A DNA stretch of 64,000 nucleotides. Origin: Takakia lepidozioides (Eukaryota > Plantae > Bryophyta). The position numbers and the translations under genes are program-made. This document shows positions 27,453 through 55,315 of the stretch, one piece after another (the first letter of the stretch is position 1; every line of letters starts with the position of its first letter). The notes beneath the pieces were generated by a model. That model was given only the letters and a program-made list of their open reading frames with translations, had not been told where the DNA came from and ran no database searches. The DNA lies in assembly GCA_030704615.1 (NCBI GenBank), contig CM060733.1, forward strand, positions 42,656,001 through 42,720,000, read 5' to 3'.

Positions 27453-27499
27453 GTCCTATTGGGGGGTCAGGCCGAAAACTGGCCGACATAAAAACCTAC

Positions 27500-28480
27500 G
27501 CGGATGGAAAAACGGCGCCGAATTTCCATCCGAGGCCTTTCGGATGCAGTCGGCTCGGGGGAAAGGCCGCCATCTGGCCCTCACATTACAACCCCCGGAC
27601 GGAAATTCGGCACCGAATATACAACAGGGGAAACCCGGATGAAGTCGCCTCGGGCGCAGAGGCCGGCGAGTGTGCGACAGAGAACATCCCCTGGATGGAG
27701 ATTCAGCGCCGAATTTCCATCCGGGCCCCCCCAAAGGAAGTCGTGTCGGGGGGTCAGGCCGAAAACTGGCCGGCATAAAAACATCCCCAGATGGAAAAAC
27801 GGCGCCGAATTTCCATCCGGGGCGGTTCGGATGCAGTCGGGGAGGGAGGAGAGGCCGGCACCTGGCCGTCACATTTCACCTTACAACCCCCGGACGGACT
27901 TCGGCACCGAATATCCAACAGGGGACGCCCGAATGAAGTCGCCTCGGGCGTAGAGGCCGGCACGTGTTCGACAGAGAGCATCCCCTGGATTGAGATCCAG
28001 CGCCGAATTTCCATCCAGCAGGTAAGTGGAATCCCGGATGGATGGAAATCGGGCGCCGAATTTCCATCCCGCAGGTAAGTGGAATCCCGGATGGATGGAA
28101 ATTCGGCGCCGGATTTCCATCCATCCGCTTCGGAATTACCTGTGTCAGGGAAATTTGGCGCGCCGCCCTACCTGCGCGGATGGAAATCCGGCGCCGGATT
28201 TCCATCCATCCGCTTCTGAATTACCTGCGTGAGGGAAATTTGGCGCGCCGCCCTACCTTCGCGGATGGAAATCCGGCGCCGGATTTGCATCCATCCGCTT
28301 CCGAATTACCTGCGTGAGGGAAATTTCGCGCGCCGCCCTACCTTGCAGGATGGAAATTCGGCGCTGAATTTCCATCCTGCTGCGCTCCGAATTACCTGCA
28401 GGATGGAAATCCGGCGCCGGATTTCCATCCTGCAGCGCTCCGAATTACCTCTACGTTGGAAATTCCGGGCCGAGTTCCGT
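27500..28480. repeat. Palindrome array of element 2, consensus GGATGGAAATTCGGCGCCGAATTTCCATCC (continues at 25118-25236 across the insertion)
   Basis: Starts at about 27506, 27601, 27697, 27793, 27896, 27991, 28044, 28097, 28182, 28267, 28352, 28405 and 28458; spacings 95-96, 53 and 85 bp (one 103). Confidence 0.92.
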
Positions 28481-28685
28481 CGATTTTCATCCGACATGAG
28501 GGCTTCATCCGACATTTAATTGCGCAGTTGGGCAATAAATGTCCACCGCCATCCGTTTTCATTCGGGTTGGCGACACATGGCTTCCTAGATACGTACCCT
28601 AAATCTGATGCTAATCTTGGCTTAACATGCTATTCGAGGCATGTACCCCAAAAACGGAGATCTTTTTCCATTTTGGCTGGGACTT

Positions 28686-28862
28686 ATGCCGCCTGAAGGG
28701 CGTGGCTCTCCTGAGAGAGACCTCACATCCAGACCGCGGCGGAAGTTGAAAGCTCTGTACTACGGACGATGGCCAATCTCTCGCATGGCCAAACTGAAGC
28801 TCCAGCAGGAGATTCCAGTGTCTTGCTCACAACCCGCGCCAACTGAAGCCGAGTACTCTCAG
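28686..28862 (+). pseudogene. First exon of the ParB-MTase-like cargo gene of element 2 (remainder lost)
   Basis: RPRRKLKALYYGRWPISRMAKLKLQQEI aligns with RPRRKLRKLYFGRRPMPKGRKQMRLQEEI at 43350-43180, in the same position divergent from the transposase. Confidence 0.72.
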
Positions 28863-31800
28863 GCAAGCCACTTCTGCTTTCGCTTTGTTCGATTTCTTTT
28901 TGCTTTCGCTTTGTTGCCTCGCTTTGTTTTTGCATCTTCATCCTGGCTTCGCTGGATGAGTGAACTTTAGATAGTTGAGTGAACCTTAGATTGTTTGCAA
29001 TGCGTGTGCAAATCCGGCAGCTCTGGAGAAGGCTGCTTGTGCATGTCATTCTCAGGGCAATGGTTGCATTTGTTTTCATTGTTGTTGCATGGCTCTCCAT
29101 ACTTCCTAAACTTGTTATGTTTTCATTTTTGTTACACGATTGTTGCTATGGTGGTTGCGCTGCTCGTTGCGATGCTGGTTTTTGCACCGATGTTGGTTTT
29201 CACGATTTTTGGGAATGACAGAGTGACGACGCGCCCGGCACGCTGGTGGTATCATCGACAGCTCCAACTCATCGCATGTTTGAATCGCCCAACTTGGGGC
29301 CAGAGGGCAAACTTAAACCTTTTGTTGGTGGACGGGAGGACTTGCAACGACAGTACGACAGAATAGGCATTGGGGAGGTTGGTGCAGGCGGCATGGCAGG
29401 TGAAGGGCGTGAGGACATGAGGACAGCAGATCAGGCAATGGAGGTTGTTCATGCACATGCAGTAGGGCCCGCCCACGCAAAGAAAAAGAAGAAAGCTAAG
29501 GACATGCAATCCCCGGCGAGAGAGCCGTCACGGGCTGCGGAGATTGGCCACTGCCAATCTAACCAGTCATCTACACTTCCCTGCACCTCCACTGCAAAGA
29601 GACTGAGCTGTACACACTGAAATCATCCAAGAATACCTGCATGAAATCATCCAGATACTCATGAAAAGATTCACTTATCACTCTCTGAAAGGTCGCTGGT
29701 GCATTACAAAGTCCAAAGGGCATGACTTTGTATGCATAAGCCCCCCAGTCTGTGATGAAAGCTGTTTTCCCTTGGTCTTCTTCTGCCACTTGCACTTGAT
29801 TATAACCACTGAAGCCATCCATGAATGAGTACATCTCATGGCCTGCCACAGTGTCTAATACTGCTTCTGTGAATGGCAAAGGGAAAGGATCTTTCTTCGT
29901 ACAAGCATTCAGCTTCTTATAGTTCACACATACTCTTAGTTTGCCATTCTTCTTGGGAACTATTACAATGGGTGACAACCAAGTTGTATACTCTATTGGG
30001 TATATAAACTTAGCCTCAGCCAACTTCTTTATCTCTTCTCCAACCTTCTGTGCGTAGTTGGGATTCATTCTATACCTCGCATGCTTGATTGGTACTGACC
30101 CTGGTTCCAGTTCAATCTTATGCTGACAGACTTCAGGTGGTATCCCTTTTAGATCCTCATAGCTCCAAGCAAATACATCTCTGTATTTGATGAACAAGCT
30201 TTTAGCTTCTTCGAAGAATTCCGGCTCCAAATCAGCTCCTACTTTCACCATCCTCGGTTCCTCTTTAGTTCCCACATTTACTTCTCTCACTTGCTCATCA
30301 GCTGTGATTGTCCAACCAGTCACCACTTCATCCTGTAAGCTCACAGTGGCTGGTTCTTCTAGGATTTCTATTTCTCCTTCTCTTTCTTCATAGAAATGTG
30401 ATGGGTAAATGCTGGTTTCCTCTTCAGTTGGTGTTGCTGTCACTACACCACAGCAGATACCTCTCAAACAACTTAGGCTTTCCAGCCGCATCTCTGCAAC
30501 CTGCTCCCACTCTGGGTGTGCAGCAAATAGGGTAGCTTCCTGCTCCTCATCCAGTCCTCCTCTCCAGTCATACTCTCTGACTCCTCGAGGTCTTCTTGTA
30601 GCAGGTAATCTACTAGATTTCTTTGTGGTAATTTGTATCTCGTGTATCCCATTATGCACGGTTAGTAACTGAGAATTCCAGTCATGGAATACCCTGGCCT
30701 GTTTCAGCCACGGACGTCCCAATAATAAGGAGTAAGCCTCCATGACTTCATCCATTTTTAATACAGTTACTGTGATCATAAAGATCATTTTCTGTATCTG
30801 TATCTTAACTCCTCTTATTAATCCCAATGGCTGCACACTTCTTTGATCTGCCATTGTTACTGTAAATGGGGCTGGTTTCATGTTACTTAGACCAAGCTTC
30901 TTCCTTAATTGGTCTGTCATGATATTTACTCCAGAACCACCATCTATCAGTACATCAGTTAGTTCTGTGCTTCCAATTCTCAATTGGATTACTGGCATAG
31001 AATCATCAAAGTCCATGACTGTTTCTCGCCCTTCCGGCTTCACATTATAACTGGTCACCTTGCTGTTCAGGTCTGTGTTTCCTGTCTCTTGGGCAATTCG
31101 ATTGATTGCTTGATACAACCTGTGCCTACAATAAGGTGCCACAGCTAATAGCTGTCCAATGGTAATTTCTGCTTTGGTCTGACATATTACTTCAGCCAAA
31201 GTCTCTTCATTACTTTGCATGTCTGCATCTTCTTTTTTCCTTTCTTCCTCACTCCCTTCTTTTTCTCCATCCGAATCAGAGGAATTTGCCACAGGAATAT
31301 CAGTACTCTTCTACATTTCCCTTATAGTATCTGCCACTTCCTTGTGCAGTTCCTTCTCATCTTTCCAAGTCTCTTCATCTTCAGGCATATCATTGCCACT
31401 TCCAATCTCATCTTCTTCCTCTTCTACTGGAGGTATTAGTTTGGCTTTACTTCTTGTTACTATCATTGTACTTACTTCTGGTACAACACATGGCCTAACC
31501 ATGTGAGCTGCCACCACTGGGCCCTCATTCACAGGAGCTCTCATCTCATTCTGGTGTCTTATCCAGAATGAACAGGCTGCCTTGCGATGTCCTGGCTGAT
31601 TACAATAGTAACATAGTTCTTCACCATTGGGTCCTCGCCCTTGGTCTGCTCTTGGATTATTTCTGTAATCCTGATTCCCGGGCTGGTAATTCCCCCTTGG
31701 ATTACCCTGATAGTTGCCTCTGAATTTCCTTGGTAATTCCCTCTTGAATTACCTCTCCCTTCCATGCCATTGTTATAACCACCAGACCTACCATAGTGGT

Positions 31801-35574: not shown

Positions 35575-36044
35575 TGGATCTGGGGGGCTGCTATTTCATG
35601 AGCCATGAGCCATGAGCGGCATGAGCCATGAGCAGAGTCGTAAGTGTGGAAAAAAACATGAGCAGCACTATTTTCCGGAAATGAGTGTCCGCGGGAATAG
35701 GGTTTAGGGTGCCACGGTCATAGGGGGAGAAGGACCTCCCGATGAAGGAGGTTCGGCAATGTTATTTAGAATTATATATTGAAAGGCAATGTTTCGCGAA
35801 TGGTAGGGTGGTACTGCTCTGTACAATGGGGGCCCATTTCAGCCTACCAGCCATTTGCAAAATTCACCCACACTCCCAATCCCAAACGAAATGAGCAATG
35901 ACGCATTCTCGGAACGATGGACACAGAATAGAATAAAAGAGGGCACAATGAGGTTTTTATTGATCCACATGAATTGCATTTGAAGCACGTCTACTGTGCT
36001 GATTGTGCCCTCAAATCTTGAGCCCTGTGCCTACTGAATACAAG

Positions 36045-37142
36045 TCACGTTGTCAATGGGACTTCGACTGCTCTCAGAACTAGCTCATGAGTCATGGGGC
36101 TCCTCCATGTAAAGTCGATTGCAGCCGTTGTACCGCCCCTAGTGATGTTCACCACAATGTCCTGCCCTTCAATCATACCACCATCGAATATGGAAATCTT
36201 CACGTTTTCGTCGTCCACACCAATGCGAATGTCCCCATACAATGGAGAAGAGGAGCGCACTCCTCGAGGAGAATAGGTCTCTCCGATGGAGTCCACCCAC
36301 GTCCAGTGGCAGCAGTTCCACCGCAACAGCATAGCAGTGCGCCTTCTTCTGCATGGGTGACCGTCGTAGCTGGGAAAATCGGAATCGAGGATGCGCAGGA
36401 GCCACGGACTCCTCAGACCAAGATCGTCACCCCGCTCGAAGGCGTAGTGGCCTACGATATACTCAAAAGCCACCAATGTTTCCACAATCGAACCAGTATC
36501 TTCTGTGTAATCTGTGTACCAGATAACAATGTCTCCCGATGTGGCCGAATACATTGCATAATCGATGCCTCCAAAGGGGCAGTCGTCCCGGTTCCGGAAG
36601 CACGGCATCCTTGCAAAGGAGGACCTGAGGACGACTTGGATGCCGATGACCTTGCGGACAGCTACGAAGCCCTTAGATTTTGGAAAAGATACGAAGCGGA
36701 AGAGCAGTCCGGCCTCCAAAATGGAGCATCTGGGTCACACGTACCCACCGACGGAGGTGGAACGTGTTCATCACGCCAGCGGTGGATGAAGCCATACATC
36801 TTTCTCATCAACAAGTTATAGTTTGAGATCTGCCACCGAAGTCCATCCCCCCGGATGGAAATTCGGCGCCGCATTTACATCGAAGAGGGGATGGACTTCG
36901 TCGTGTCCAGTGGCTATCGGCCCACCTGGCAGTGACTGCCCATAGTTTGCATGGCAGGGTAGGAAACTGAAACGGCTACATTCATGCAGCAGCCAATCTT
37001 CATCGGTCCAGGATCCTGTACGGGGGAAATTTAAATGTGCCCTGGAGTGTGCCCTGGAATGTACCTCACTTCTGTATGACTGTGTTTCATTGTGTTGAAT
37101 AACTCTCGGATTTGGCCCACTGTTTACAATTTGATGTCTCAT
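36045..37142 (-). CDS. Third gene of element 1, unknown function (probably spliced)
   Basis: ORFs 37142-36816 and 36719-36045 on one strand. A candidate donor GAT|GTAAAT at about 36878 opens an intron that holds one palindrome. A palindrome array lies directly upstream. Exon structure uncertain. Confidence 0.45.
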
Positions 37143-37235
37143 TTCTACAATTTGTCTGTCTGGTTGAATAAAGCAGAGTAACCGGTATGTGAGTCATGTG
37201 TCAAGAATATACCAGAGTAACGCCATGTCGGACAT

Positions 37236-37950
37236 TGAAATGCGGCGCCGCATTTCCATGTCGGCATCGAAATGCGGCACCGCATTTCCATGTCGGACAT
37301 CGAAATGCGGCACCGCATTTCCATGTGGGACAAGAAAATGCGGTGCATCATTTCCGTCCAGGTACACGAAATACCAACACGGGTCTATAAATTGATCAGA
37401 AAACGAGGTTGGCATTGCAAATGCGGCGACGCATTTCCAGCTTGGCAATGGAAACTTCTTTTTGGACAAGGGAATGCGGTGCCGCATTTCCGTCCAACAC
37501 TTCGAAAAGTGCACCTATTTCCGACCAGCGCGATGGAATGCGTTACCGCATTTCCGAGAGAGGGTCTGCAAATTGACAAATTGCGATGTCCGTTCTGGAA
37601 ATGCGGCGCCGCATTTCCATGTCCGTCATCGATTTTTTTTTTACAATGGAATGCGGTGCCAGTTTTTGCTGATGGGTCTGCAGTTCGAACAACCACCATC
37701 CCCAATATGGAAATGCGGCACCGCATTTCCAATCCCGCCATGTCGGCCTCCTTGTTCGACCTCCTTGTTCGACCTCTGTAAGCGTGGTGGCATCCATGCA
37801 ATGAGCGGGAGAGGCCAAAACTGGCGTGTGGACAAAGGAAATTTTGGAAATGCGGCACCGCATTCCCAATTCAGATTACTTTTTACTATGCCAACATTGA
37901 AATGGAAAATTAGTCCCTCCCCTGTTTTGGAAATGCGGTGCCGCATTTCC
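37236..37950. repeat. Palindrome array (about 12 copies of GGAAATGCGGYRCCGCATTTCC) upstream of the third gene
   Basis: Starts at about 37236, 37268, 37301, 37334, 37417, 37470, 37534, 37597, 37647, 37709, 37846 and 37929. Confidence 0.9.
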
Positions 37951-38138
37951 AAAAGAGGTTCTTAGAGTTGCCAAAATTTTGGAAATGCCCTGACCCATTT
38001 CTGATTTTGGGAGCGTCCTGGTTTGGGCGATTGTGTGGCTGGAATGCACACTGGAGAGGGGTCACGAATGTCGGGCAGAATTTTCTTTATATACTCTGGA
38101 AGAGAATTTACATTTACAGAGACTTCATTAAAATTCTA

Positions 38139-41100
38139 TTAATCTTGAAAATCATCGGAATCCTCATCCTGTTCTAGACTGTCCTGCTCCTCCTCCACCC
38201 CCTCAGTGCCTCTCTCATCTCCAGCGGACTGCTCGTTGGCCAGGCTTTCGAAAATCCCATCTTCCCCTTGCGGAACTGTCCATCTCACCTCCGTTGGGTC
38301 GTCCTCCTCCCTGTCTGCGTCGCTCTCATCCGCTGAATCACATATGTACTTTCGTACCCGTCTACCTGTCTGAGCTGCTGCCAACTCTTTCCTTATCCTT
38401 CTGTCCTCCCTAGCCCTCTCCAAAATCTGCTCTACTTTACTGGGATTCTCACTTCTTCTAATCGCTGTATTTGCGAGTTTAGCTGCATAACTAGGAAGGG
38501 AGTAGTCCCTCACCGGGCTCGTCATGAAGTCGGCCCTCGCAAAGAACGGGACATTCTTCCTGGCAGGAAGTGTAGGCCCTACATGTTTCGACCCGGACCC
38601 TGCAATCCTGCACATGACAATCATCAACGAGACTAATGAGAACCACAGTCGGGAAATTCCTTTGACATAAATGACCCAGAAGGCTTTGCAAACTTACAAT
38701 GTTTGCACTCACTCGTATTCCGGGTTCTCCTCTGCATCAATGTCCACTGTGTCTTCCTCGGACTCCGACGAATCCGAGGAGACTTCCGCTCTGTCGGGAG
38801 CCTTCACATTCCGTTGCAGCCCCTCCAGATGGGATCCCCACACGGATGAATCCTCCTCGTAGGCAAAGAGGTGCCGGTCGGAAAACCGCCCAGCCCACAT
38901 TGAGGCACCTGTTACAATGCCATCCACACATTACCACATGGCGCTTCAGATGTTGCGAACTACATCCTAACGAGAATTTGCAGAACAGCAGAGATCAAGA
39001 TTCTGCATACCTGTCCCACAGATGAGGTCCAGCACTGTGCCCTCCACGTCTGTGCATGTCTCCATAATTGTCTGAATGAAGGCAGGGCTCCGAGTCCGTG
39101 AGTACCGCAGGGGTTCCGTTGAAGTGAGGCTATGAGGGAGAAGTTCCTTGGGAACGTTGTTGAACAGAACGTCGTAATCGAGTGGGTCGCAGTTCGGGTC
39201 AACCTTTCCTCCCTCCTTCCGGAAAGCAAAGGTGGAGTTTTCCTTCACAAAGCAGTATGCATCGAACTGCTTCGTCTGCATACACAGGGGGAAAACGATT
39301 AGAAACCGAATGCGGCACCGCATTTGAAAGCACCCAAGCAAATGAATGGACGAGTGCCAGTGTCGTAATCACCTTCTTCCCTTCCGACCGAAGGCCCAGT
39401 GTGTTGATGCACGTCCACTTCTTTTTCAGAATCGGGACGGCGCTCTTGCGGGTCCACTTCGCAATTCCTGTCTGAGTGTTTTTTCCTCTGCTCGCCAGGA
39501 CAACCACACAGCCTCTGTCGTCCAACACCATGCGGGCAAGCCCGAATCCTTTCTTCCAAAAGTCCTCCGAGTACCTGTTCCAAGATGGCAAAGCTTGCAG
39601 TCCTTCCACAGGCTCTCCGTCCGGAATATCCAAGATGATCATATCGCAAGACCACTCGGTGGCATTTCCGCCCCTCCTACAATCCTTGTCTGCACACACC
39701 CTCTCAAAGAACGAGACCATATTCTGAAATCCTGGGGTGTCGGAAGGCTCTTCGGCAGTCGCCTTCTTCAGTGCTCTGCCCTTCAGACCCTCCATGGTCT
39801 TCATGTATGCCAACTTGGCTGCCCGTCCATCCAAAGCCGCCAAGAAACTCTCATTTACACACTGGACTACAGTTTCGGGAGCCACTTTCGGCCTCTTCAT
39901 TTCCACCGGCTCGAAAGGGTGCCCCCCTGGGGGGTTGAAGAGTGCCTTCTTTGCCGAGCCAGTTCTCGTGCCTCTCGTGACAACGGTGGGCACAGGGGAG
40001 GCAGCCTGCGTTTGGGGGGGTGGGCTGGTTGCAAAGTCTCCATCGGAGTCCTCTTCCTCACCCTCTTCCTGAACAGGCTGTTTCTGCTTCTTCGTTTTGG
40101 CGGGTGTCACAACAGCTGCTCCTTGCTGGCGAGTCCTCTTCTTCGACCCCTTCTGTTGGGCCTGCACAGCTGCATCCACCGTCTTTTGTGCCATCTCAGC
40201 TGCCTTTCTGGATTCTTCCAGAGCAGCAGATTCCTTTGCCGACTTTGGCCCAGCAGGGACACGTCTTTCCTTTCTCTTCTCTTCTGCCAAGGCGTGCAGA
40301 TCTTTCTCAGACTCGTCAACAATACCGCCAGACATGTCCAGGTACCACGGGCATCCAACGAGATGCGCGGGATGCCATTGTTTCTGCATCTCGGGTGTGT
40401 AGACACAGCTTGGGCCCGCCACGGTCCAAGCCATGAAGAACGGGGGCTCTTGAGCCAGGGCCCCTGTCTGAAGGAGCACGTATTTCATATACCTGCAAGG
40501 CAGTCAGCATGCGTGAGCAAAACTTGAGACCAACCTACTGGCAGAGTGCCACCGAAAACATAAAATGCGAATGCGGTGCCGCATTTCCGAGACAAACCTC
40601 GTAACCAGGCTTCGCATACAAGGGCAGCTGTGCTTCACCTGTAAACAATTCGCATTGCAGCTTTCCCCGCTCCCTCCTGATGTGTAAACTCCACGCTCCT
40701 TCTTGCTGTCTGTAGCTCTCTGGCGAAAAGGTTGTCCTTGTACGCACATCTGAAACGTGTCACGTAGTCTTCCAATGTCTGTGTTCCATCCCATTTGACG
40801 TACAAGCCGAACGAATTTGTGTGCATTACGACTTGCTCCTTTGCATTCGACATTACCTGCCATTCCCAAATGCATTGTCACGTAGCAGTTCAGGGAATTC
40901 ATGTCAGAAAAGCAAATCTGGGGAAGTACCTTGAATTACCTGGAACCACCAAGTCATACGGTTGAGCCACACATCCACTGCAGGGTCGGAAACTTCCAGT
41001 GGAAAAGACCACATTGTCCTTATGCTCTCGGATGCATTCCAGATCGACAGCCACCGTGTCTGCCATTTCCGATCCAATGTCAGTGGCTGGAAGAGAGTGG

Positions 41101-43350
41101 CTATTGCTAGGAAGGAAATTCAGTGCATTGAAACCTCACCTTCTCTTTCGCCTCCACACATGCCGTTGAGAGGTGATGCAGTTTCTCCAATTGCATGGTC
41201 GGCTGCATGGCCCGAGAATAGTGTTTTGCAATCTCGGGGATGAAGTCCTTTCCAAGTGCCGGATCTGCAATTGCCACCAGCTTCACAAGCTTTGACTTGT
41301 ATTTGGTTCTGGACTTGACACCGGCTTCCTTCAAGTGCTCAGTCAATGACTGCAACGTTTTGACCTGCCCCTCACTTTCCATGAAGAAGCGTTTGGCATG
41401 GGCCAAATCCAGCTTGATGTTTGACTGCCAACAAAAACATGCAGAAGCGTTACATTCGATTCATGTGGAAACATTACTGGAAATTGGGGAAGGATGAGCA
41501 GAGGGAAATTGGAGCACGACTTACTTCGTATATCACCTCCACCATTCCATCCATAGTGAGACGATACCATGTCCGGTCTGTTTTTGCAACGGCTTTCTGA
41601 ATGAGCTCCGGCTCCAGCATTTCCGCAAACATCTGCGGATCAGTAAGACCAGTTTTCCTCACCCTGTACAGCATATGTGCCATGTGGGTATGCACGTACG
41701 CATTCTCAGTGACCCTGCAAGGCACACTCTCCAGTTCAGTACACGGAAGCACGGAATCAAACCAGAATGGAAACCGAAATGCGGCACCGCATTTCGAATG
41801 TGCTAGGGAGGGTATGAGTATCTTACGAGTTGAGGTCCGCCATGGCATTCTTGAGGAGGGAGGAGTCTGCCGCCTTCACCTTGAGGATGACACACTCCAC
41901 CATGTAATGCCAGCCAATGTGCTTGGCATGGTTCTGCTTGATGTACTCCCACCAGGCGAGAAGTCGGTGATTCCCGTCCCACACAAAGAACATTTTTCCC
42001 GACATATGGCCGAAGTCGGGATCACCCTTCAGCGTCGCCTCGAATTCGTGGTTGCGAGTGTGCCAGTGGGTATCCCACGTTGACAATTCATCGGCAGTGG
42101 GTCCACGGGTTTCGCCGTCCTCATTCTCTATGGAAACGTAAAACGCTGCCGATCCCAGACGGTACCCTTCTCGAAATGCGAACTTGAGCTTATCCACATC
42201 TCCGGGAAGGGCCTGCCTGACGATGGGAAGGGAGACCATGCGACAGAGTGGGATTCGAAGAGTCCGCTGGAATACCCTGCTGCCCAGAACTCTGCCAATG
42301 CTACTGTGTGTCTCCTCCAACATTTTATCCGCTGCACTTTTGAAATCCTCCGGAGACATGTCTGTAGGTGCCGGTAGTGGCTGAGCAGGTGGAGCATCCT
42401 CAACTGGAGCTGCACTCTGGGGCCTGTGTGCGGGCAATTCTGCCATTGCAGAGGCCTCCTCCGGGCCTGCTAGCTCATCGGTGGTGAGGTCTGCCTGCGA
42501 ACGTTCAGCGGCAGCACCCTCCTCCGGTACCAAATCGAGATCAACGGTCGATCCCATTGCCTTCGCTGCAGCAGAGTCGGCCCCAACATCTGCAGGCGGG
42601 AAATCCTCCAGGAACTGAGCTTCAGCTCGTGGAAGCGGTTTTGCGGGAGATTGTTCGGCCGTCGCCCTGATTGCCTTCTGCTTCCTCATCCTTGCAGGTG
42701 AAGGTGTCTGCTGCAATAGAATCTGTCTTCTACCCTGCTGCTTCATTCGCGTTGGGGGGGGTGAATCGGCCTGAGCCGGTTCAGAAGCCAGTAGAGGGAC
42801 GGGCTGCTTCTTCTTCGACTTTGCTGGAGAAGGGCCCGACCCCTGCTGGCGATTCTCCATGATCGAAGAACGCGAGTCGATCTCTGAGACTTTGAACTTG
42901 CCCTTCGAAGACGCGTCTTTGAATCGCAGAGGGCTAGGCCCGGCAGGAGTACCCGCGCTCGGGGATCGGGTGGGTGTACGTGCTGCAGCTAGCTCCTCGG
43001 ACTCTTCCTGCGGCTCTTCGGATTCCTGCGATCCCTCCAGCACGTCCACCTTTCCTGTTAGGCATGCAAACATGTTCTGCATTCAAGTCTCCTAGCATTC
43101 AGTCTAAGAATTACAGAAGCAAAATGGGGGGTTCGGTGCTCGATCAGCTGCGCGCAGCCCGATCGCATGGAGCTCTCACTGGTGGCTGGGTTGCCTGAGT
43201 GGCCTGCTGCTCGGAGATGGCAATCTCCTCCTGTAGACGCATCTGCTTCCTCCCCTTCGGCATTGGCCTACGTCCGAAGTATAATTTCCGGAGCTTGCGA
43301 CGAGGTCTCCTGTCTGGTGCACGAACTCCCCCCCTCTCAGGTTCGAGCAT
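38139..43350 (-). CDS. ParB/Srx-like domain + beta-class N4C/N6A DNA methyltransferase-like fusion protein, about 1400 aa. Exons approx. 43350-43180, ~43050-41827, 41714-41525, 41424-41140, 41086(or 41059)-40940, 40856-40639, 40492-39373, 39275-39011, 38908-38713, 38607-38139
   Basis: ParB-like: LRIPLCRMV...VRQALPGDVDKLKFAFREGY...FFVWDGNHRLLAW. MTase-like: CDMIILDIPD (motif IV position), LARMVLDDRGCVVV, RSPAFIQTIMETCTDVEGTVLDLICGTG|ASMWAGRFSDRHLFAYEED (motifs X-I-II, joined across a phase-1 intron). Eight GT-AG introns from exon 2 onward are phase-compatible with no stops. The exon 2 acceptor is uncertain. Confidence 0.8.
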
Positions 43351-43698
43351 AAGAAGAACAGAGAGAGGGAAAAGGGGCAAAGAGTGCAGATGGAAAGGGC
43401 GCGAGAGGGGTGACTGAGGAGACACGACAAAAGTAGATGAAACGGCGGTGATGCACCACTTGGGTTCGAAAGGTTGGACGAAAGTGTCTCCTCGTGGAGT
43501 TTGCGTCATTACGAAATTCGAATCGTTGAGGGTACGCCCGCCGTCCGAAAATCAAACATCATTATCCAACGGTCAGGCCGCGCCGCCTCATGCCCCTTCA
43601 GTCAGATAGAGTGCCGACATGTGCAGCAATTCCGTTGCTCCACGTGTTCACATTTCAAGGCATTTCCGTCCCAGCGTCTGATGAGTTGGAGCGAGAAT

Positions 43699-45297
43699 GC
43701 GAATGCGGCGCCGCATTTCCGTTAAGTACGATCACTCTGCTACACATCCGTACTTGTTGGAAGAAAATGCGGCACCGCATTTCCGTTCCACCTTCACATA
43801 CCTTAGTTGTTGAACGGAAATACGGTGCCGCATTTCCGTCCCACAGCTCCATGTATGAGATTCAGAAGGGAAATGCGGCGCCGCATTTCCGTTCCCACTT
43901 CACATACGTTAGTTGATGAATGGAAATGCCGTGCCACATTTCCGTTCGGGAAAGTATAGAGGTCTCACCTGGACAGAAATGCGGTGTCGCATTTCCGGTC
44001 TGGAAAGGTTGAAGGTCTCACATGGATGGAAATGCGGCAACACATTTCCGTAGCACAGCTCCAGGCCGAATATACAAAACGGAAATGCGGCGCCGCATTT
44101 CCGTTCGAGAATGTCGGAAGGTGCGACTCGAACGGAAATGCGGTGCCGCATTTCTGTACCCGTTGCGCACGATTTTCAGTCAGAATGGAAATGCGGTACC
44201 GCATTTCCGTTCTGTAGAGTATTAACGTCTGACGCTGGCGGAAATGCCTTCCCGCATTTTCGTTCCACAGCTCCATGCCTCACATACAAAACGGAAATGC
44301 GGTGCCGCATTTCCGTTTTGGAATGTCGGATGGTGGGACTCCGACGGAAATGCGGTACCGCATTTCAATTCCGATGTTTCAGGATATTTCATCAGAACGG
44401 AAATGCGGTGCCGCATTTCCCTTTTAAATCTAATACATTCCGTTCTGGAATGTTGGGAGGTGCGACTCGGATGGAAATGCGCTGCCGCATTTCAGTTCCG
44501 ATGGTTCACGATTTTCAGTCAGAACGGAAATGCGGTGCCGCATTTCCGTTCTGGAATGATGGTAGGTGCGACTCGGATGGAAATACGGTGCCGCATTTCA
44601 GTTCAGATAGTTCACGATTTTCAGTCAGAACGGAAATGCGGTGCCGCATTTCCGTTCTGGATAGTGTGAATGTCTCAACCGCTCGGAATTGCGCTGTATG
44701 AAGCTGTCGGAATCTTACTCGGCTCCAGGCATCAGATACAAAATGGAAATGCGGCCCGCATTTCCTTTATGGAATGTCGAAAAGTGCGACTTTGACGGAA
44801 ATGCGGTGCCGCATTTCTGTTCCCGTTGTTCATAATTCTCAATCAGAACGGAAATGCGGTACCGCATTTCCGTTCCACCTTCACATACCGTGCTTGTTGA
44901 ATGAAAATGCGGTACCGCATTTCCGTTCTCGAGAGTATGAATGTCTTTTAAGGACGGAAATGTGCTGCAGCATTTCTATCCCTCAGCTCCATGCATCAGA
45001 TACAAAATGGAAATGCGGCGCCGCATTCCCGTTCTGGAATGTCGAAAAGTGCGACTCGGACGGAAATGCGGTGCCGCATTTCTGTTCCCGTTGTTCATAA
45101 TCTCAATCAGAACGGAAATGCGGTACCGCATTTCCGTTCCACCTTCACATACCGTGCTTGCTGGATGGAAATGCGTTACCGCATTTCCGTTCTGGAGAGT
45201 ATAAAGGTTTCCCCCGGACGGAAACTCGGTGCCGCATTTCCGTCGCTCTGTTGCATGACCAAGATGCAATACGGAAATGCGGCGCCGTATTTCCGTC
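43699..45297. repeat. Array of about 30 palindromes (AC)GGAAATGCGGYRCCGCATTTCC(GT) with 53-bp period, between the divergent cargo and transposase starts
   Basis: Starts at 43763, 43816, 43869, 43922, 43975, 44028, 44081, 44134, 44187, 44240, 44293, 44346, 44399, 44473, 44526, 44579, 44632, 44685, 44745, 44797, 44850, 44903, 44956, 45009, 45062, 45114, 45167, 45220 and 45273. Spacers fall into about 5 diverged classes. Confidence 0.96.
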
Positions 45298-45723
45298 CAC
45301 CAGCAATCGACAGAATCACTCGTGACGGGAAATCTGGAACCTCAATGGGTTGCATTGTTCCGAAACAACACAATTGCGGCCAGTCTTGATGAGCACAACT
45401 TGGTTGTCTGACCGTTTTAACCAGCAGTCCTGGCACTTGTCAGTGCGAACGTTCCTGTCTGCACCGAGAATACTGCTGGATCCACCCTCAGGAGAAACTG
45501 TCAGGAGATGTTATTTCGTCGCCGAATCGGCCATCATTGTCCTACTCACTGGCTATGGAATCAAACCTCCCACCTTCATGCATGTAGCTTGAAACAATAC
45601 TTTCCACTTCAATGTGCGACTTCCAATTGTCGATGGACTCCGCAGATCCACTTAGATGGTGCCTGTGAGCCTTGGTCTGTCGCTATACTGAACCTCGCAC
45701 TTGCCAACTCCGTGCGGTGTTCG

Positions 45724-48700
45724 ATGGCTCCGAATTCCTACGCTATAGTTTGCTGTCCTCCGCAACTTGGGAGAGCCTGGATCCCAAACGAGGGAGGACT
45801 TTGCAGAGTGACTGAAACTTACCTTTGTTCCAAATTCAAGCTCAAACCGGGCACAGTTTATTTGGAAGAAGAAAGGAAGGATGTTCCTGGACAGGTTGAC
45901 GAGACCATTGTCGTGCTAGGTAACGACGGAGGTTGCGGAATCGAATGGCACGTTCCCCCGTCAGACACCATCCTGTACCGAGCTGTGGGAATGCCCATTC
46001 CCTTTCCGAATCAGTCGCTGCCCACACCATCCACAAAGGAGTCCGGAAACCGAGAGGCGGCCACTGCCAACAGAGAGGTATGCAACGATAATCATTCCCG
46101 ACCTGGACCGTCAAGACCCTCCATAGCTTCTCGTGTGGACGTATTCGACATTTCCGACGAGGAAGATGATTGCATTGAGGTACCCATGTCCTCCACACGG
46201 TCGTTCAAATCCGGCATGGACGTCTCTGTAGGTGCTACGCATGTGCCCTCGAGCATAACTCCAACCCGGTCCATTGTGCAGCTCCTACGACAACATCACC
46301 TCGATGGTTCTCGCTCCGAGCTGGCTGCTCTCGACTATGCCAAATTCCCAGTCAGAAAGGTAACGTTTCTGCCTCCCGAAGTCGATGGCAATGTCATCTT
46401 CGAGTTTCCACCTGTTTCTTCGTCAAAGAAAGCCTCCGGGATGTTAACAGACATGGATCGAAAGCATGACGGACACCCCTGGTGTGTGACGAAGACCAGT
46501 AGCACGAAAATTGCTGATGGTGTTCGTGTACGATATGTCCTCTGTGCGGGGAAGCTGAGGTGCCTCAATCCCACCTGCTTCCACTTTCTCTCCAAAGGAG
46601 GGCGGAGAAACGAGACGGATTGGACTGGCACAACGCATCATCCATTCATTGTCTCCAGCCAAGCTCCTGCGGGTTCTTTCAAGTGTGCACATTGCAAAGA
46701 ACCACCGACGTGCATGTCCATGTGCAGAGCCAAGCAATATTACGTAATCCATTTGCTCCCGGACTTGACTAGAGCTTGCATACACGTTGGGGTCCACTGC
46801 CACCCCTTGGCGAGAGGCAACATGCGTGAGGCTGTGCAGGAAGCACACGACATCATAAAAGAGGAGGTGAAATTGAGCCCCGGAGCCAGACCAAAGCAGA
46901 TTCAGCTGAAGGCAGCCCACAAGATTGCTCTTGGCAAAATCATGTCTGAAGATGGTTCCGACCGAGAGCCCTTGACCGAAGACGAGATGCGTGACCTCTT
47001 GGAGTCCGTCTCGCACGTTTGTAGTCCGAATGTGCGGAATCACATCGTATCTTGCAAGCAGGAGTTCGGCAGGGGGTCGGACATGTACTCAATCCTGGAG
47101 GTGAAACGAATGACTGGATATGACTACATCCAAGGTAGCAGGTTTCCAGGGCAAGGCAGCGAATCCGATCGTTGTTACATTTTCAAAATGTCGACGTGTG
47201 GGCCTGGGAGTGGAGTCGACTTGGTCACTCGCATGACAACTGGAAACTTGTCGAATGCTTGGGTGATGTTTGATCACATCAAGCGAATTACAAACCATCA
47301 GTGGGTGACTATGGGTGCGCATGTTTATGACTATCACTCCAAGAGGCTCATGACGATTGCAATCTGCGAGATGAAAGGGGAGGACACACAGTCCGAGATG
47401 CATCTGTGGGAGGGCATAAACCAGCAGATGGCAAGGGCGGGATTGCCAGAGCCCAATTTCAGGGGATTCATGGCAGACAACGCTCAGGCCAACTGGGCAG
47501 CGGTGCGGCGTGTGTACGGTGAGGACCCCAATGTTCCAATGGAGGGGAAAGAGAGATCCTGTGGATTCCATTGGATGCAGAGTCTATCCCACTACACTAC
47601 CAAATTTGTTGCTAGCTCATTCCAGGCTGAACACCGTGTCCTTTGTACGGCGTGGAAGGATGCACCCACATTTGATGACGCGGAGGTTAAGTTTGCTATC
47701 ATCGAGGCTTGGTGGAACACGTCAGGTGCAGTGGAGACAACCAATCTGGGAGCATTGCACAGCTGGTTGGGGTGGTGGCATTTTCGGTATCGACAGTTCG
47801 GACAGTACATGCGGGAGGTAGGCTGCTGTCAATTTCGTTCATTTGTCTTTCTGTTACGGACATTTCGATTGGTCCCTCACCGTTGTTTGTGTCCTTCTAG
47901 GAGCGGTGCTTGGATTCCGACACGGACATGCCGAACACGAATATGGCAGAATCGGTCCACTCCTCCTGGCGAGCGTCTTCTGCCGCACATCTGGTGGACG
48001 TAGTGACGGCCACAACGGAGGACATCGACAGAGCAATCATGCAGCAAGCCACGTACTACAAGTTCCTGAGCGGCAAACAATGGGGCTTTGGGCCGGACAG
48101 GGAGGAATTGTTGGTACGAACAGCTTCGAGGTCCAAGAATCCAGTGAAATGGGCGACAGCATTGCGAGAGAAGATCAAAGGGACGCCTCTGCACCGCAGA
48201 GGTGAACACCTAGAGGGGGACGTCCGGACTCGCCCTGTCAGGCGGAGGATTGAAGAGGAACCCGGGTGCGAAGAGGATTCCTGGAGATCCGACAGGAACA
48301 TTCGGACAGCACCTCGAGGTCCCGTCATGTTGCCGCACAATGTGTCTTCCAGCAGTGGAAGCCCAAGAAATTCCAGATCGCCGTCGCCTTCAACCGGGGA
48401 TTTCGTGCAACAAATTCCCACCGCTCCCTTGCCCCACATTCCGCCCGCTGTTATGCAGTATGGCCAAGCCATTGTGGAGACGACTGTGTCTGCCTCACAG
48501 TGGAGAATTGCTCGCACAAAGCCGTCGTTTCGAGGAAGGTGTTCCGCAATTCGTGTGGATACACGGCAACGTTGTTTAGAGATGATAAGGAGGAATCCAG
48601 ATGGGGCTGTCCCTGCTCCTACTTTTACAGGAAGATTTGTCCATGCAAAGTTTGCGGAGGCGACAACCACCCAGTTCTGGTTCTGCAGGCACGACATTAT

Positions 48701-49330
48701 GACTTGCGTGTATGGAAAGCCCAAGTACGGCATACAGACAATGCCAGAGGCTCCCCCGGTGTGGCCGGTGGAACCAGGCTGCGATCTGAGTCAGGTTGAG
48801 GCCGACGCCCTTACCGCCGCAGGATTTCGGATGGTGCAGCGCACTGACGTGCCCAGACACCATTTCCGCTTCCACAGCCTCCACCACCGACCCCTGTGAG
48901 AGCAAGAACAATGGGACACGACAGCTCTAAGCATCCTACACACCGTTGGGGGAAACCGAAGAGGCGGCGACCTCCCTCAAAAGTGAACGAGACAAGGATG
49001 GGGAATGCACTTCGGATGAACTGTACAATCCAGAGCTCGACAGAAGTGCCCCCACCAGGATTCGGGCGTGTGTATCAAATGGCCACGGCGGGCTCAGCTG
49101 TTCGCAATGAGGTGTACACCATCACCATTTCAGAATTACCCACCTGCAATTGCACCGACTTCCAGATCATGGCGAACAAGGGGGCATCATACTGCCCTTG
49201 CAAGCATTTGTACTACGTGTACCTAAAGAGACTCCGTTGTAATTCCACAACTCATCACTTCATACATGCACCAGGGTTGAGCCCCCAGGAGGTTCACACT
49301 CTTCTGAATATGGATCCAGGGGACCAGTGA
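45724..49330 (+). CDS. MULE-type DDE transposase with N-terminal GCM-like Zn domain and C-terminal SWIM finger. Exons 45724-47817 and 47901-49330; one apparent 1-nt frameshift at about 48864
   Basis: GCM-like W...CxGxxxCxxxxC...CxxC...C...GxHxHP (46480-46810). Putative catalytic D (VMFDH), D (FMADNA) + CGFH, and E (TNMAES). SWIM CNCTDF-x-CKH. The intron position is conserved in element 2, where the SWIM region is in frame with the DDE region. Confidence 0.9.
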
Positions 49331-50184
49331 GCTTGGCTTGCGGTCCACATACAATGGTACGCCCATCGGATAGTAGAACTGTACTGCTGCCAGTACCTCA
49401 GACTCTGGCCACACAAAGGTCCGACATATGTCTTGCCTACCAGTAACCTGTTTTGATCGAACTAAGATATTACTATATCGTTCACTTGTTTCCACGTGCA
49501 TGTATTTTTGTATGTTGGAGGGTTCATGTTTTTCTGCTTTCCGAAAACTTGCTCTCCTCATTCGACCTCCGACAAGGAAATGCGGCGCCGAATTTCCAAG
49601 TATCGTCGTAGGTACCCCCAGAGGCGGCCTTCGCCAACACCAACCCGCTCCGAAATTTCGCACGTGCGAACCCTAATGCGGCATCCTATTTCCCAGTTCA
49701 GTTGCAAACCTTTCCCGCCGAATACCCGAAGAAGACAGAATTGTGAAGTACTGCAGACTGTATTGGTGCAGACTCCATTGGTTCAATCGCGGCAAAAGGG
49801 TCAGCTTCATTCCAATGTTAAGGCATGTAAAACCGCGGAATACTCTATACAGGCCAGTATGCGACGTCCTTTTGCAGTGGTATACTGGATTTCCCGTTGC
49901 ACGGTCACTTATTTCCATGAGCGGATCTATAAAACCATGAGCGGACTTGTTACTGACGACATATCTTCGCCGCATTACATGATCTGGAACGTCCAAAAAC
50001 GGCAAGGTCAAATAAAAAAACTATTATTTTAATACTTGTTTAATCTGCCGCATTTCCAAATTTGGAGGAGTCCGCTCATGAAATCCGCGTATCTTAGACT
50101 TCGGCTCACCGCTCATGCGGCTCATGCGGCTCATGGCTCATGGCTCATGGTTTCTGCTCATGAAATAGTAAACCTCTGGATCTG

Positions 50185-51019
50185 GCTCTTCTTCAATAAT
50201 AAGTCCTTCATCAAGAGGTTCATCTTCATCGGATGAATCTTCTTCTTCATCCGTGTCGTCCATGAGTTTGAGAGCATTTGGAAGGTCATAGTCTCCTTGA
50301 AACATTCCCAGAGCATTTATAGGATCTGTCTCTTCATCTGGTGCTTCTGGTTGAACAGCAAACAAAAATGCATCGGGAAGTTGATCCTCTACCCCCGTGG
50401 CTAGTTCTCCTATAGTAATCCTTGACAGATGATCTGCTGTAACATGTAATCTCCCTGGTTTATGAACAACTTCAAAGTCATACTCATGAAGAAGTAATAA
50501 CCATCGAGCAACCCTGCCACTAGCTAGTGGTCGATTTGCTAAATGAACTAGAGCCTGATGATCAACAATAAACTTAAAGCGATTGCCAAGTAAATAATGC
50601 CGAAATTTTTGAACAGAATAAATCATTGCCAATGCTTCTCTTTCTGTGGTGCTATAGTTCTTTTCTGCTGTTGTTAACAATCTGCTTGCATAATAGAGGT
50701 GAATCTATTGTGCCTGTCACATTCTGAGCTAGAACCGCTCCCAAGGCAATGTCTGATGCATCACTGTGTACATGAAATGGTAAATCCCATCTTGGATTTA
50801 TCAGAATTGGTGCTGCTGTGAGTGCCCTTTTTAGTGAATCAAATGATTCCTGGCAAGCTGGAGACCATCTGTATTCGGCATCTTGCTTCAGTAGTCTATA
50901 GACTAGTGCTGCTCTGTGAGCATATTTGTCCATGTACCTTCTGTAATAGCTCGTCTGTCCCATAAATCTCTTGAGTTTCTTGGGATTTTCTGGTGGTGGT
51001 ATTTTCTGTAACCTCCACT
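50185..51019 (-). pseudogene. Gypsy B pol, RT thumb/RNase H
   Basis: LKRFMGQTSYYRRY, FHVHSDASDIALGAVLAQ, NYSTTEREALAMIYSVQKFRHYL, FIVDHQAL, ADHLSR. Confidence 0.92.
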
Positions 51020-52199: not shown

Positions 52200-52940
52200 T
52201 GCAGCACGGAGCAGAGTTGGCATGAGTTTTACCCTTCACGATGGTGGGACAACAGCCCTGAGTTTTCCAAGGATGCGAAGGGCGTGTTTGACGAAATGGC
52301 TGCCAAGATGTCGTGTCATGGAATGCAATGATCGCAGTGTGGTACGAAGGCTTTGGAGACATATGAGGAAATGATGCCAGACAGGTTGAGCCCTAACGCA
52401 GGCTGTGTTTCAATCTCTGCCCGCTCAATTGCACCGTGGTGGTTCTCATTGACCAATCCGACATTGCCAGACTACAAACACATGCAGCACACACAAGAGG
52501 TCCTCTTGGGTTCATGGTCAGCCAAATCCTCCATGGGTCATGACACAAGGTCGAGGACAATGTGGTGAGGGCACTTTCTTCTTCGACCTATTTCAGCCTG
52601 TTTTGTCCTCTCATCAGACTCAGCCCTGAATTTGCAGCACGGACCAGAGCTGGCATGAGTTTCTTCACGATGGTGGGACAATCGCAATCGCAAGGTGTGG
52701 CTTTTTCTTAATGTAGGATGTAAAGAAGTTTGTCCATCCTACAAATGTGGGCTTTTGGCTCCTGTTAGTACCATGCATGTTGTACCCAATGTCATTCTGA
52801 ACACTGCCCTGGTGGACTGCATTTATGCCAAATATGGGTGTATCGAGGATGCAAAGGAAGTGTTCGATAGTATGGCTGAACGAGATGTGGTGTCGTGGAG
52901 TGCGATGATTGCAAGATATGCACAGCAAGGGCGCGGATGG
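52200..52940 (+). pseudogene. Captured fragments: OSB-type PDF motifs interleaved with PLS-PPR repeats
   Basis: TEQSWHEFYPSRWWDNS, DAKGVFDEM, NPTLPDYKH, RWWDNRNRK, and NVILNTALVDCIYAKYGCIEDAKEVFDSMAERDVVSWSAMIARYAQQG. A unit of about 130 bp is duplicated at about 52120 and 52555. Confidence 0.78.
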
Positions 52941-55315
52941 AGGCTTTGGAGACCTATGAGCAATGATGCGGGAATGGGTGATTCCCTATGGGAAAATAGA
53001 CATAGCTGTAATGATAGAGTGAGGCATGAAGCAAGCTTTGGATGGCACAGACATGAGAGCGTAGGTACTAAAAGGTAGTAGGAACTGGGAATATGTTTGC
53101 ATTACAGAGCGTAACTTTATAGGCAAGAGAAAATGGTCACAAGCTTGTAAGATGAGTGCTTCAATCTGTTCTTATACAAGGTTCTCCTCAGTTTCTGATA
53201 GTCTGTTCGCTAGCTTTCTAGTTGCAGGGAACCCTTGGGTGTTGATTTCGTGCTCCACGTCAGCCCAATGGCCAAGGTCAGCTTTGTTCATGATGGCCTT
53301 CCGGGGCTTTTGGTGGTGGATGGAGAGGACCTGAGGAAGGGCTATGCTGTGGCAACACCACCAACTCGGTCATAGATTTTCAAGCCTGTCTGCAGCTTGT
53401 GGATTTCAAGCCCATTATGCTCTACAATCCACTCCCAGAATCAAATTCGTCAAGGACAAATTCAAGCGTTGCTTTCAGATCCTGCGTCAGCATTGCATGG
53501 GCAAGGACATATCTGTTTTTAGTCAACCCTACGAGCCAATGAGGAGCATCGAGCTGTGCCACTATCTCCAAGTTGTTATGGGCCAGGCCAACCTCGACGA
53601 CATTAGCCAGATCTTTGAACGGTATCACACTAACTCTAAGGAAAGAACGCCACAAATCTGGGCTTACATTCTCATTGATCAACCCTCTCAAACACCTTTT
53701 GGTGGCCATAATCTGATCATCTCAAAGACAACATGTGAACACAAGGGTTGCAAGCGGCTTGAATCCCTGACGAATGCTGCCAAATTGCTGGAAAAGGCTG
53801 GGTGTCATCAGGAGGCAATCTTAAAATTGCTTCAGGCTCTGTGGCTGATGCTGCTATATTGGGGCAATGGCAACACGGAATGGCATCTCAGGCCTTCTAA
53901 TGAGGCCCTTGGGGTGCTGCAGGAAACTCAATCCCTGATACAAAGAGAAGGGATCAGCATTGATGTTGTATTATTGCATGAACTCCAACTTCTGCAATCA
54001 GTGAGATCTGGCACATTCCATGTAGACAAGGAGAACTGGGACAAGGCAAAGACACCAAAACCATTCAGGCTTAGGCTGATCTCATGCCATCAGGCTGCCC
54101 CATATGCTAGCCAGATTTCTAGACCAGTGGAGGCACAACGCAACGCACAAGCTCTCACTTTTCAGGGTTTCAAATTAACTAAGTGTCATGGTCTCTTTGA
54201 GGAGGCTGTTTCTCCCTGCGCCACTGCATGTATTGGGCGTATGAAGATGTGTGCAGGTTATGGCCAATCTGTTGCTCCGTCAAATTTCACCCACGCGTTG
54301 GCTGGTAGTTTTTCCCTCAACTCCGAGTTTGACAAACTAAGCACCCCGGGGTATGGAAGCATTGGCGAGTGGGCTGCCATTCTTTTCCTTGCCACTAAGG
54401 CTGATCGACTGGGGTTGAGTATGGTGGGTGGGCTTTGACGTTGCTTGGGACTCTCAACTTCACAGATTCAGGCTGCCCAACCTCTGAACCTGGTCTCTTT
54501 CCTCGGATGGTGTCTGCAGGTACAATGACCTCTTTACTTCACCTCCTGTTTATGATGTATACTCAATGGCACATGCCCCTGTTCTTGGATCAACATTATA
54601 CTTCTGATCATTTTACTCTCATGCACATGCCCGCTTTCCAAATGTACATGCCACACTCCCCCCTCTATTTGATAAAAATCCAGGGATATCTGTACGTGCT
54701 CTTTATGTTGTCTTGTTCTATGATTTCATTATCTCACTTCCATTCTATGATATGTATTTAGAGATACATGCCCCGGTTCTTGGATCAACACTCAGTATCT
54801 TATTTTTACATACTTATCTGAAGTCTACTTACCAAATGGCGCATGTTATCAACTGCTGTACCAGTAATTACTATAACCATGCTGACAATGTTCTATGTCT
54901 CCAACCTATGCACCCTAAGGCACATGCCCCTGCCACACCATACAGGAACTCGGACTTATAATTATGAGCACTAACAATATATGTACATTTCCGCTATGCT
55001 TAAGACAACAGGTTGCTGCTCACCATCTCAAAACATCCACAACAATGACAGACCAAGGACTCTCACATTATGAAAACACCAGAATGCAGGTCAGGTTACA
55101 TGCCCTATATCCTCCCCACTTCGTCTCAAGTGATATCCAACTACAAGCGACCATGGTGAAGCAGCTCATTGAATCTCCCATGTACCATTCCCCCTCTATG
55201 AACTTGTGTTCTTTTCAATGCCATGTCATTTCACTCTGTTTTCCCCTCTTATCAGAATCACCCTAAATTTTCATGTTTCAAGAATTCTGCAAGTTAGCTG
55301 GTTGAGTGAACCTTT

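Follow-up and report, generated by a model that had tools for sequence, protein, structure and literature searches.

The closest described counterparts of the system reported here are accessory genes of algal transposons. Its subject is the cargo gene of element A, a Mutator-like DNA transposon of the bryophyte Takakia lepidozioides; the gene encodes a ParB/sulfiredoxin (Srx)-fold domain and a methylase-like domain in one protein and lies among palindromes specific to its transposon family. Element A is contained in a stretch of 64,000 nucleotides (GenBank assembly GCA_030704615.1, contig CM060733.1, positions 42,656,001 to 42,720,000 of the forward strand), hereafter the window, whose own numbering is used throughout. 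Tentatively, and at somewhat less than even probability, we predict by analogy with the VANC system of Arabidopsis that the cargo protein binds the palindromes of its own family as a dimer and thereby keeps the element clear of CG methylation.

In the brown alga Ectocarpus, the transposon Sola1-1_Ec32 has an accessory gene encoding ParB-like and N4C/N6A methylase domains, for which self-binding and modification have been proposed (PMC12477816). The Takakia cargo, too, is an accessory gene carried on the opposite strand by a large DNA transposon and has ParB-like and methylase-like domains (the Sola protein has ~1,100 aa), a likeness of description; it differs in that its element is Mutator-like, not of the Sola superfamily, and resides in a land plant. 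The available part of the Sola1-1_Ec32 account treats the methylase as active and describes no palindromes, whereas the Takakia cargo has a non-canonical catalytic motif. In Plavaka elements of Bostrychia (PAG3/PAG2), the ParB-like gene PAG3 adjoins inverted-repeat arrays, and self-binding has again been proposed; ParB-like genes also occur in red-algal Mutator elements (bioRxiv 10.1101/2025.02.11.637652). With the Takakia cargo this system shares the ParB-like N-terminal domain and the tandem inverted-repeat arrays beside the gene. According to the same partial text, however, Plavaka has ParB fused to a 2-oxoglutarate (2OG) oxygenase and a separate, SET-fused adenine methylase, whereas the Takakia protein unites ParB and methylase-like domains. 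The kind is thus already in print for algae (Ectocarpus, Bostrychia), and the idea of a ParB-like cargo binding the inverted-repeat arrays of its own transposon for red algae. We found no description of a land-plant transposon with a ParB cargo in the open-licence literature; the bioRxiv supplements may list plant elements.

A second point of comparison is VANC of the Arabidopsis VANDAL Mutator-like elements (MULEs), which is linked to family-specific tandem motifs in non-coding DNA and to loss of methylation across the whole element (PMC5735166). The Takakia cargo likewise has a Mutator-like host element, with family-specific tandem motifs in intronic, intergenic, and terminal non-coding DNA. 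As far as the source goes, the VANC motifs are asymmetric words of 8–9 bp, whereas those of Takakia are 22-bp palindromes; the function of VANC has been demonstrated, that of the Takakia cargo is predicted, and the likeness is one of layout and predicted role, no shared domain being known. With bacterial ParB, Noc, and KorB, on the partial texts at hand, the cargo shares the fold of the N-domain, one pocket Arg, an Asn, a helical domain next in order, and palindromic sites; unlike them, it has a GNHR motif, large insertions, a 22-bp site that is not parS, a methylase-like C-terminus, and a spliced eukaryotic gene. No ParA-like frame was noticed among the open reading frames (ORFs) of the element, for which no ParA profile search was made. 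Chlorophyte ParB-helix-turn-helix (HTH) methylases and phage ParB-terminase loci have also been reported, and in the portion of that report available the ParB_N-N6_N4_Mtase fusions of the phage loci have the same domain order as the cargo (PMC4738411). Such phage fusions are the likely source of the cargo fusion.

The cargo gene and its ParB/Srx-fold domain

The sequence-only reading had singled out VWDGNHRLLAW and an upstream IPL...GY segment as ParB-like. Both are present on the minus strand within a 419-aa ORF at 41823–43082, the IPLCR...VR...L...F..GY segment starting at 42254 (aa 332 of the gene model) and WDGNHR at 41981 (aa 423). They form the end of exon 2, which is followed by a GT donor at 41826. 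The model of the cargo gene has 10 predicted exons, every end of which conforms to GT..AG, and its joined frame is open over 1,407 aa. Introns 4 and 5 (2/9) are spliced in one contig of run X1, which we guess to be RNA and which set the exon-5 acceptor to 41059; the remaining seven introns are predictions. The parts of the gene are as follows.

43180 to 43350, minus strand: exon 1, predicted; basic N-terminal peptide
41827 to 43076, minus strand: exon 2, a low-complexity, likely disordered part and then the ParB/Srx domain; acceptor predicted
41829 to 42323, minus strand: ParB/Srx-fold domain, with IPLCR..VR, WDGNHRLxAW at 41981, and MxDxN at the exon end
41525 to 41714, minus strand: exon 3, conserved helices directly after the ParB domain; first part of a candidate DNA-binding domain
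41140 to 41424, minus strand: exon 4, helical hairpin and VAxADPxLG helix; second part of the candidate DNA-binding domain; donor seen spliced
40940 to 41059, minus strand: exon 5, helices rich in Trp; splicing seen at either end
40639 to 40856, minus strand: exon 6; acceptor seen spliced
39373 to 40492, minus strand: exon 7, Trp/Cys-rich module, acidic linker, and start of the methylase-like domain; motif IV DIPDG at 39630
39011 to 39215, minus strand: exon 8, with an uncertain acceptor; S-adenosylmethionine (SAM)-binding half of the methylase-like domain (beta class), including motif I, DLICGTG, at 39029
38713 to 38908, minus strand: exon 9, end of the methylase-like domain and acidic tail
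38139 to 38607, minus strand: exon 10, with YxLPxYA, a motif that Riccia homologues have as well, then an acidic end and the stop

The gene is apparently intact. Among 40 of 223 variant rows, all 11 variants in aa 301–1300 are synonymous, while all 10 in aa 1–300 change the protein. Eight of 10 homologues looked up carry organism names, from Riccia sorocarpa and Adiantum, and a match to the methylase half was found in Ceratodon (n = 1). A homologue of exon 1 lies in the sister element B at 28683–28832, and similar peptides were seen by eye in two related loci, L017 and L025. The Pfam scans of the cargo returned no informative family.

The domain has 493 relatives at E ≤ 0.001 in a search of 1.84 billion representatives; the counts of the phosphate motif given below refer to the 150 listed. 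Its AlphaFold model reaches a pLDDT of 92 and a pTM of 0.87. In the VIA structure search, 8/8 matches at Z ≥ 5 and 12/13 at Z ≥ 2 belong to the ParB/Srx superfamily, with KorB at the top (Z 7.9, root-mean-square deviation (rmsd) 2.5, 89 aligned) and PadC and Srx also in the lead; a Z below 8 can, as VIA warns, reflect a common arrangement, and here the matches converge on one superfamily. For this count we took SerK, SbnI, SspE, BrxU, Osa, and Atu1540 to be members of the superfamily. Foldseek led to the same superfamily at weak E-values (best PDB match at E 0.017; two BFVD matches at E ≤ 0.001). From the model and these matches we are confident that the segment forms a ParB/Srx-fold domain, as first proposed. 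A chance motif is ruled out by the 493 relatives, the pLDDT and pTM of the model, and the confinement of VIA matches at Z ≥ 5 to a single superfamily. Sulfiredoxin proper was considered and rejected, its Z being lower than that of ParB in the long model and the motif being without the catalytic Cys. Pfam gave no ParB match for the cargo or the domain, and PDB sequence and profile searches with the ParB domain and the methylase returned nothing. Of 17 pattern matches in viral contigs none was confirmed as a relative; no longer homologues were found, which is weak evidence since the length window was too long.

The phosphate motif reads GNHR in 75 of the 90 motifs parsed among the listed relatives, in agreement with the GxxR of the superfamily, and a G[EA]RRxx[AG] string occurs, regardless of position, in 1/150. 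Across 20 close relatives, conservation reaches at least 90% at each residue of G-N-H-R, at an Arg upstream, and at the final Asn. GERRxR is the phosphate motif of CTP clamps, in the parts of the reports available (PMC10786196, PMC11790492). By motif position, the Arg of GNHR corresponds to R117 of KorB, while the alignment ends by pairing the nearly invariant N165 of the domain with KorB residue 146, an Asn that KorB needs for CTP hydrolysis according to the accessible text (PMC11790492). KorB depends on both residues for its CTP. The pocket is conserved because both the Arg at the R117 position and the Asn aligned with N146 are kept.

For the part that follows the domain, the fold was taken from a model of the Riccia homologue P0076 (131 alignment rows), ~24% identical to the cargo protein. 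The helices after its ParB domain are mostly confident, and residues 166–536 align in order with almost complete ParB and Noc fragments that comprise the N-domain and the DNA-binding domain (7bm8, 179/180 residues, Z 8.8; 7o0n, 193/194, Z 8.7; 7ng0, 199/199, Z 8.0) at an rmsd of 7.6–8.4 Å, with Srx lower at Z 5.7. The models thus suggest a ParB-type DNA-binding domain with insertions after the N-domain. For the HTH that the sequence-only reading would look for at this place, the helices come in the right order, but the alignment over the DNA-binding part is loose and the tight rows cover the N-domain alone, so that an HTH is no more than suggested. As to a dimer, no C-terminal dimerisation domain was recognised in the structure searches, nor was any fold for model residues ~540–750, and a two-copy complex prediction of P0076 150–620, in which the alignment was not used and the fold was uncertain, scored 0.00 and points neither way.

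Family-specific palindromes

At up to three mismatches, the window contains 51 matches to a 22-bp palindrome, GGAAATGCGG-NN-CCGCATTTCC, of which 42 lie in element A and nine in element B; 100 shuffles gave none. When up to five mismatches are allowed, element A holds 45 copies, all 45 of them outside its 8,824 coding bases and three within cargo introns. They are arranged as follows, none with an assigned strand.

43699 to 45294: main array of palindromes, with a period of 53 bp, in the interval from which the cargo and transposase genes diverge
36857 to 38002: a second cluster of palindromes, on the downstream side of the cargo
41775 to 41796: lone palindrome in cargo intron 2; further ones in intron 6 at 40567 and in intron 7 at 39306
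49576 to 49597: lone palindrome in the right subterminal region, from the palindrome scan

Arm positions 2–10 are conserved in 80–90 of 90 half-sites, and the central pair varies between C and T. The sequence-only reading had called these palindromes parS-like. The arrays are real; the resemblance to parS is not, and parS was rejected as the identity of the site, with a single match at three mismatches where 2.6 were expected by chance for the word that we take to be the parS consensus.

The palindromes differ from one family to another. Of 151 related loci found, 80 were kept, 33 of them of at least 2.4 kb, and 11 of these 33 have a palindrome of their own in at least three copies (shuffles reached at most two). 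Many share a CGG-NN-CCG core and differ in their outer arms. None of 81 copies in 10 loci falls inside a matched exon, matched exons being the only ones known. In L017 (1123–4254) and L025 (527–2800) the array apparently occupies the first intron, after the exon for the basic N-terminal peptide and before the ParB exon. L043 has a second array at 4879–5385, with a 51-bp period and an interrupted palindrome; it adjoins the transposase start and differs from the 22-bp palindrome that this locus has close to its ParB gene. Elsewhere in the window, 4077–5414 (4077–5265) holds at least 13 palindromes of the GATGAATTTCGGCGCCGAAATTCATC type with a ~64-bp period and an observed/expected (o/e) CpG ratio of 1.4, and no transposase remnant was found near it; a further 22-bp palindrome, of the ACCTCGACATTAATGTCGAGGT type, is present at least six times at 18226–18936.

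A possible signature of escape from methylation

CpG o/e is 0.71–1.30 across element A and 0.76–0.80 in element B, compared with 0.21–0.39 in gypsy stretches and 0.42 in a LINE-like stretch. A host gene of similar GC content, encoding a gamma-tubulin complex component (10387–13162; Pfam GCP N and C domains), has a value of 0.54. The retention of CpG spans the whole of element A, beyond the arrays. Among cargo copies, the transition/transversion ratio (ts/tv) was 0.69 (18/26) and 0.70 (80/115) in two runs, whereas a gypsy control in the same runs gave 3.1 (100/32) and 2.6 (126/48; Fisher p 4e-5 and 2e-9), an imperfect control in that a retroelement has its own source of errors and contigs drop rare variants. 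Changes of C>G and G>C were also commoner among cargo copies over 38000–43500 (16/44 in run X3, 40/195 in run X4) than in the gypsy control (4/132, 6/174), an excess that could come from bypass of abasic sites.

The methylase-like domain

The methylase-like domain has motif IV (DIPDG) before motif I (DLICGTG), the order of beta-class N4C/N6A methyltransferases, and PF01555 was hit in 7/7 Riccia homologues scanned at E 1e-5 to 0.14, every one below the curated cut-off. The canonical [DNS]PP[YFW] occurs in 0/44 homologues (47 rows less three dropped for gaps, mostly Riccia paralogues), which mostly read DxPx[GEN], with an aromatic fourth residue in 1/44. Motif I is often degenerate in relatives, where its first Gly is frequently missing. 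Among the named clusters of the Atlas, phage ParB-methylase fusions come nearest, with scores of 0.82–0.83, which are below 0.9 and serve as a lead only. Judged by its motifs, the domain is likely non-catalytic in this lineage; most likely it acts as a SAM- or DNA-binding module and not as a writer, and an altered chemistry is conceivable. Kinship with Marchantia DN4MT1 was considered and rejected: DN4MT1 has TSPPY, and the available text on it makes no mention of ParB (bioRxiv 2021.02.12.428880). That text and PMC3834811, as far as available, added little on the cargo.

The sequence-only reading had speculated that the methyltransferase domain is delivered along the element; delivery of an active methyltransferase is doubtful because the canonical catalytic motif is missing in 44/44 homologues. 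The fullest form of the speculation is an NTP-gated sliding clamp that would load at the palindromes, spread, and carry an active amino-methylase writing 4mC or 6mA, which we regard as unlikely. The conserved pocket Arg and Asn speak for it, as do the nucleotide-bound ParB structures that are the best structural matches of the long model, the element-wide extent of CpG retention, the purifying selection on the methylase-like domain among the listed variants, and the Atlas neighbours as a lead; KorB, too, departs from GERRxR and yet clamps, in the text available (PMC11790492). Besides the loss of canonical motif IV and of its aromatic fourth position, mostly among Riccia paralogues, the frequent absence of the first Gly of motif I, the retention of one of the three Arg of GERRxR, and the obstacle that nucleosomes would pose to sliding argue against it.

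The host transposon and its surroundings

The setting in a plant transposon, claimed from the outset, is confirmed by terminal inverted repeats (TIRs) and a target duplication of 9–11 bp. The element is called Mutator-like because of this duplication and the D..D..CxxH..E and SWIM-like residues of its transposase.

35584 to 50176, no strand: element A, whole Mutator-like DNA transposon of ~14.6 kb (14,585 bases), inserted in a gypsy pol gene
35584 to 35633, plus strand: left TIR, CTATTTCATGAGC and then tandem 7–9-mer repeats
50111 to 50176, minus strand: right TIR, with the same start as the terminus that sister element B has near 20040
45421 to 49330, plus strand: transposase with Cys/His-rich N-terminal domain, D..D..CxxH..E, intron 47819–47900, and SWIM finger

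The duplication, TGGATCTGG, is found at 35575–35583 and 50177–50185 (9 bp, up to 11 bp shared), and the right flank is the RNase H part of the gypsy pol gene. The D..D..CxxH..E residues stand in the order expected of what we take to be the MULE signature; Pfam gave no MULE-family match for the element proteins. The transposase shifts frame near 48850 (48848–48899), before the SWIM finger, a region that is in one frame in element B; the finger is below the Pfam cut-off in both (E 0.03 in element A, 0.001 in element B). Its N-terminal domain looks GCM-like by eye, a resemblance for which Pfam and the PDB sequence and profile searches gave no match, and the half-site ATGCGG looks like a GCM site. 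Of 12 loci that extend at least 4 kb upstream, seven, representing five distinct elements, have a related transposase head-to-head upstream of the cargo; none was found there in the other five.

In two small runs, contigs span 30/30 and 29/30 bins of the cargo, many at 95–99% or more, which is what a family with multiple copies would give. Those of runs X1 and X2 that match just the surroundings of WDGNHR (41929–41994) and diverge beyond represent more distant family members in the same organism. Element B (~20040–28900) has the same terminal sequence, a related broken transposase, and the palindrome GGAAATTCGG-CG-CCGAATTTCC; of the cargo it retains a remnant of exon 1, after which the sequence changes. 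Within element A, a 229-aa stop-to-stop frame on the minus strand (36045..36734) is overlapped by a 245-aa frame on the other strand, to 36821; the open frames of 36045–36821 matched neither Pfam nor any of the 80 related loci. More related-transposase fragments are located at 14021–14524 and 60836–61112, and a PPR-repeat gene fragment at 52659–53078.

Weighing the explanations

In the VANC-like binding that we tentatively prefer, the helices after the ParB/Srx domain would contact the 22-bp palindromes of the element and a dimer would read both half-sites. Nucleotide in the GNHR/Asn pocket may gate binding or release, and the bound, perhaps locally spread, protein would exclude or reverse 5-methylcytosine. 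Spreading as a clamp is plausible. A complete eukaryotic clamp of the ParB type in transposons of seed-free land plants, which would load at the family palindromes, close on nucleotide, slide over 14.6 kb, and shield the element from CG methylation, seems improbable to us. The VANC-like binding is favoured by the fold, the conserved pocket, the order of the helices after the domain, the non-coding and family-specific placement of the palindromes, the arrays beside ParB-like genes in Plavaka, a different superfamily, the retention of CpG, the low ts/tv among cargo copies, and the synonymous variants in aa 301–1300.

Several observations weigh against the VANC-like binding. GNHRLLA stands in place of GERRxR; the rmsd over the DNA-binding part is 7.6–8.4 Å, in a fold taken from the ~24%-identical Riccia homologue, and the tighter P0076 alignments (2.7–3.5 Å) span the N-domain only. 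The central CG of the palindrome reads 47 C, 42 T, and 1 G in 90 half-sites, and such near-exclusive C/T variation fits some methylation there. No palindrome family at threshold was found in 22/33 related loci, including long AT-rich decayed ones, and the arrays at 4077–5265 and 18226–18936 have no detectable ParB or methylase remnant. The CpG retention could stem from a recent arrival of the element, and reverse transcription itself may raise transitions in the gypsy control. Finally, the Mutator transposase AtMu1 alone hypomethylates its own family, as the part of the report available states (bioRxiv 2026.08.24.746577).

That last result leads to the rival in which the palindromes are sites of the zinc domain at the N-terminus of the transposase, which would activate or hypomethylate its own family, leaving the cargo with another job and no site preference. 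We think this unlikely as well. It gains from the same report of a Mutator transposase that alone binds and hypomethylates cognate copies and from the arrays in the window that are without a ParB gene, as well as from the GCM-like look of the half-site ATGCGG and of the transposase N-terminus. The GCM identity, however, is without a Pfam or PDB match, and the half-sites of other families (ATTCGG, TCTCGG, GGCGG, GGTCG) do not keep the resemblance to a GCM site. The element has separate terminal heptamer repeats, which would be the usual transposase sites, and AtMu1 transposase peaks at the TIRs in the accessible data (bioRxiv 2026.08.24.746577). Moreover, palindromes lie inside the introns of the ParB gene, and in Plavaka, with its unrelated transposase, arrays adjoin ParB-like genes in the text available (bioRxiv 2025.02.11.637652).

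That the cargo instead binds the palindromes for transposition, to bridge or compact the element or to join its ends, and that CpG is retained merely as a by-product, is quite improbable: ParB proteins do bridge and condense DNA (PMC10786196, available text), the palindromes lie near both ends and centrally, and the same transposase is head-to-head upstream in the 7/12 loci (five distinct elements), but synapsis would need no methylase-like domain, and the similar algal cargoes in different transposon superfamilies, as far as described (bioRxiv 2025.02.11.637652, PMC12477816), fit a chromatin function that is portable between elements better than one tied to a particular transposase.

Implications for Mutator-like elements of land plants

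To the algal precedents, the present analysis adds an apparently intact cargo gene, a confidently assigned fold with its pocket residues mapped, palindromes that are family-specific across loci, and a methylation-escape signature with controls. The lineage includes liverworts and ferns, and mosses by the methylase-half match. Work on VANC has left open how a short motif leads to clearance of methylation from a whole transposon. One concrete and testable answer is that a protein derived from ParB loads at palindromic sites and spreads. If the clamp is true, it would account for the protection of an entire transposon by a short motif and would represent a programmable, spreading anti-silencer. 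Nature offers numerous pairs of protein and palindrome, and swaps between them lend themselves to tests of specificity. Even if the protein binds only, land-plant MULEs would have a second system of anti-silencing or self-recognition, independent of the first and assembled from prokaryotic components.

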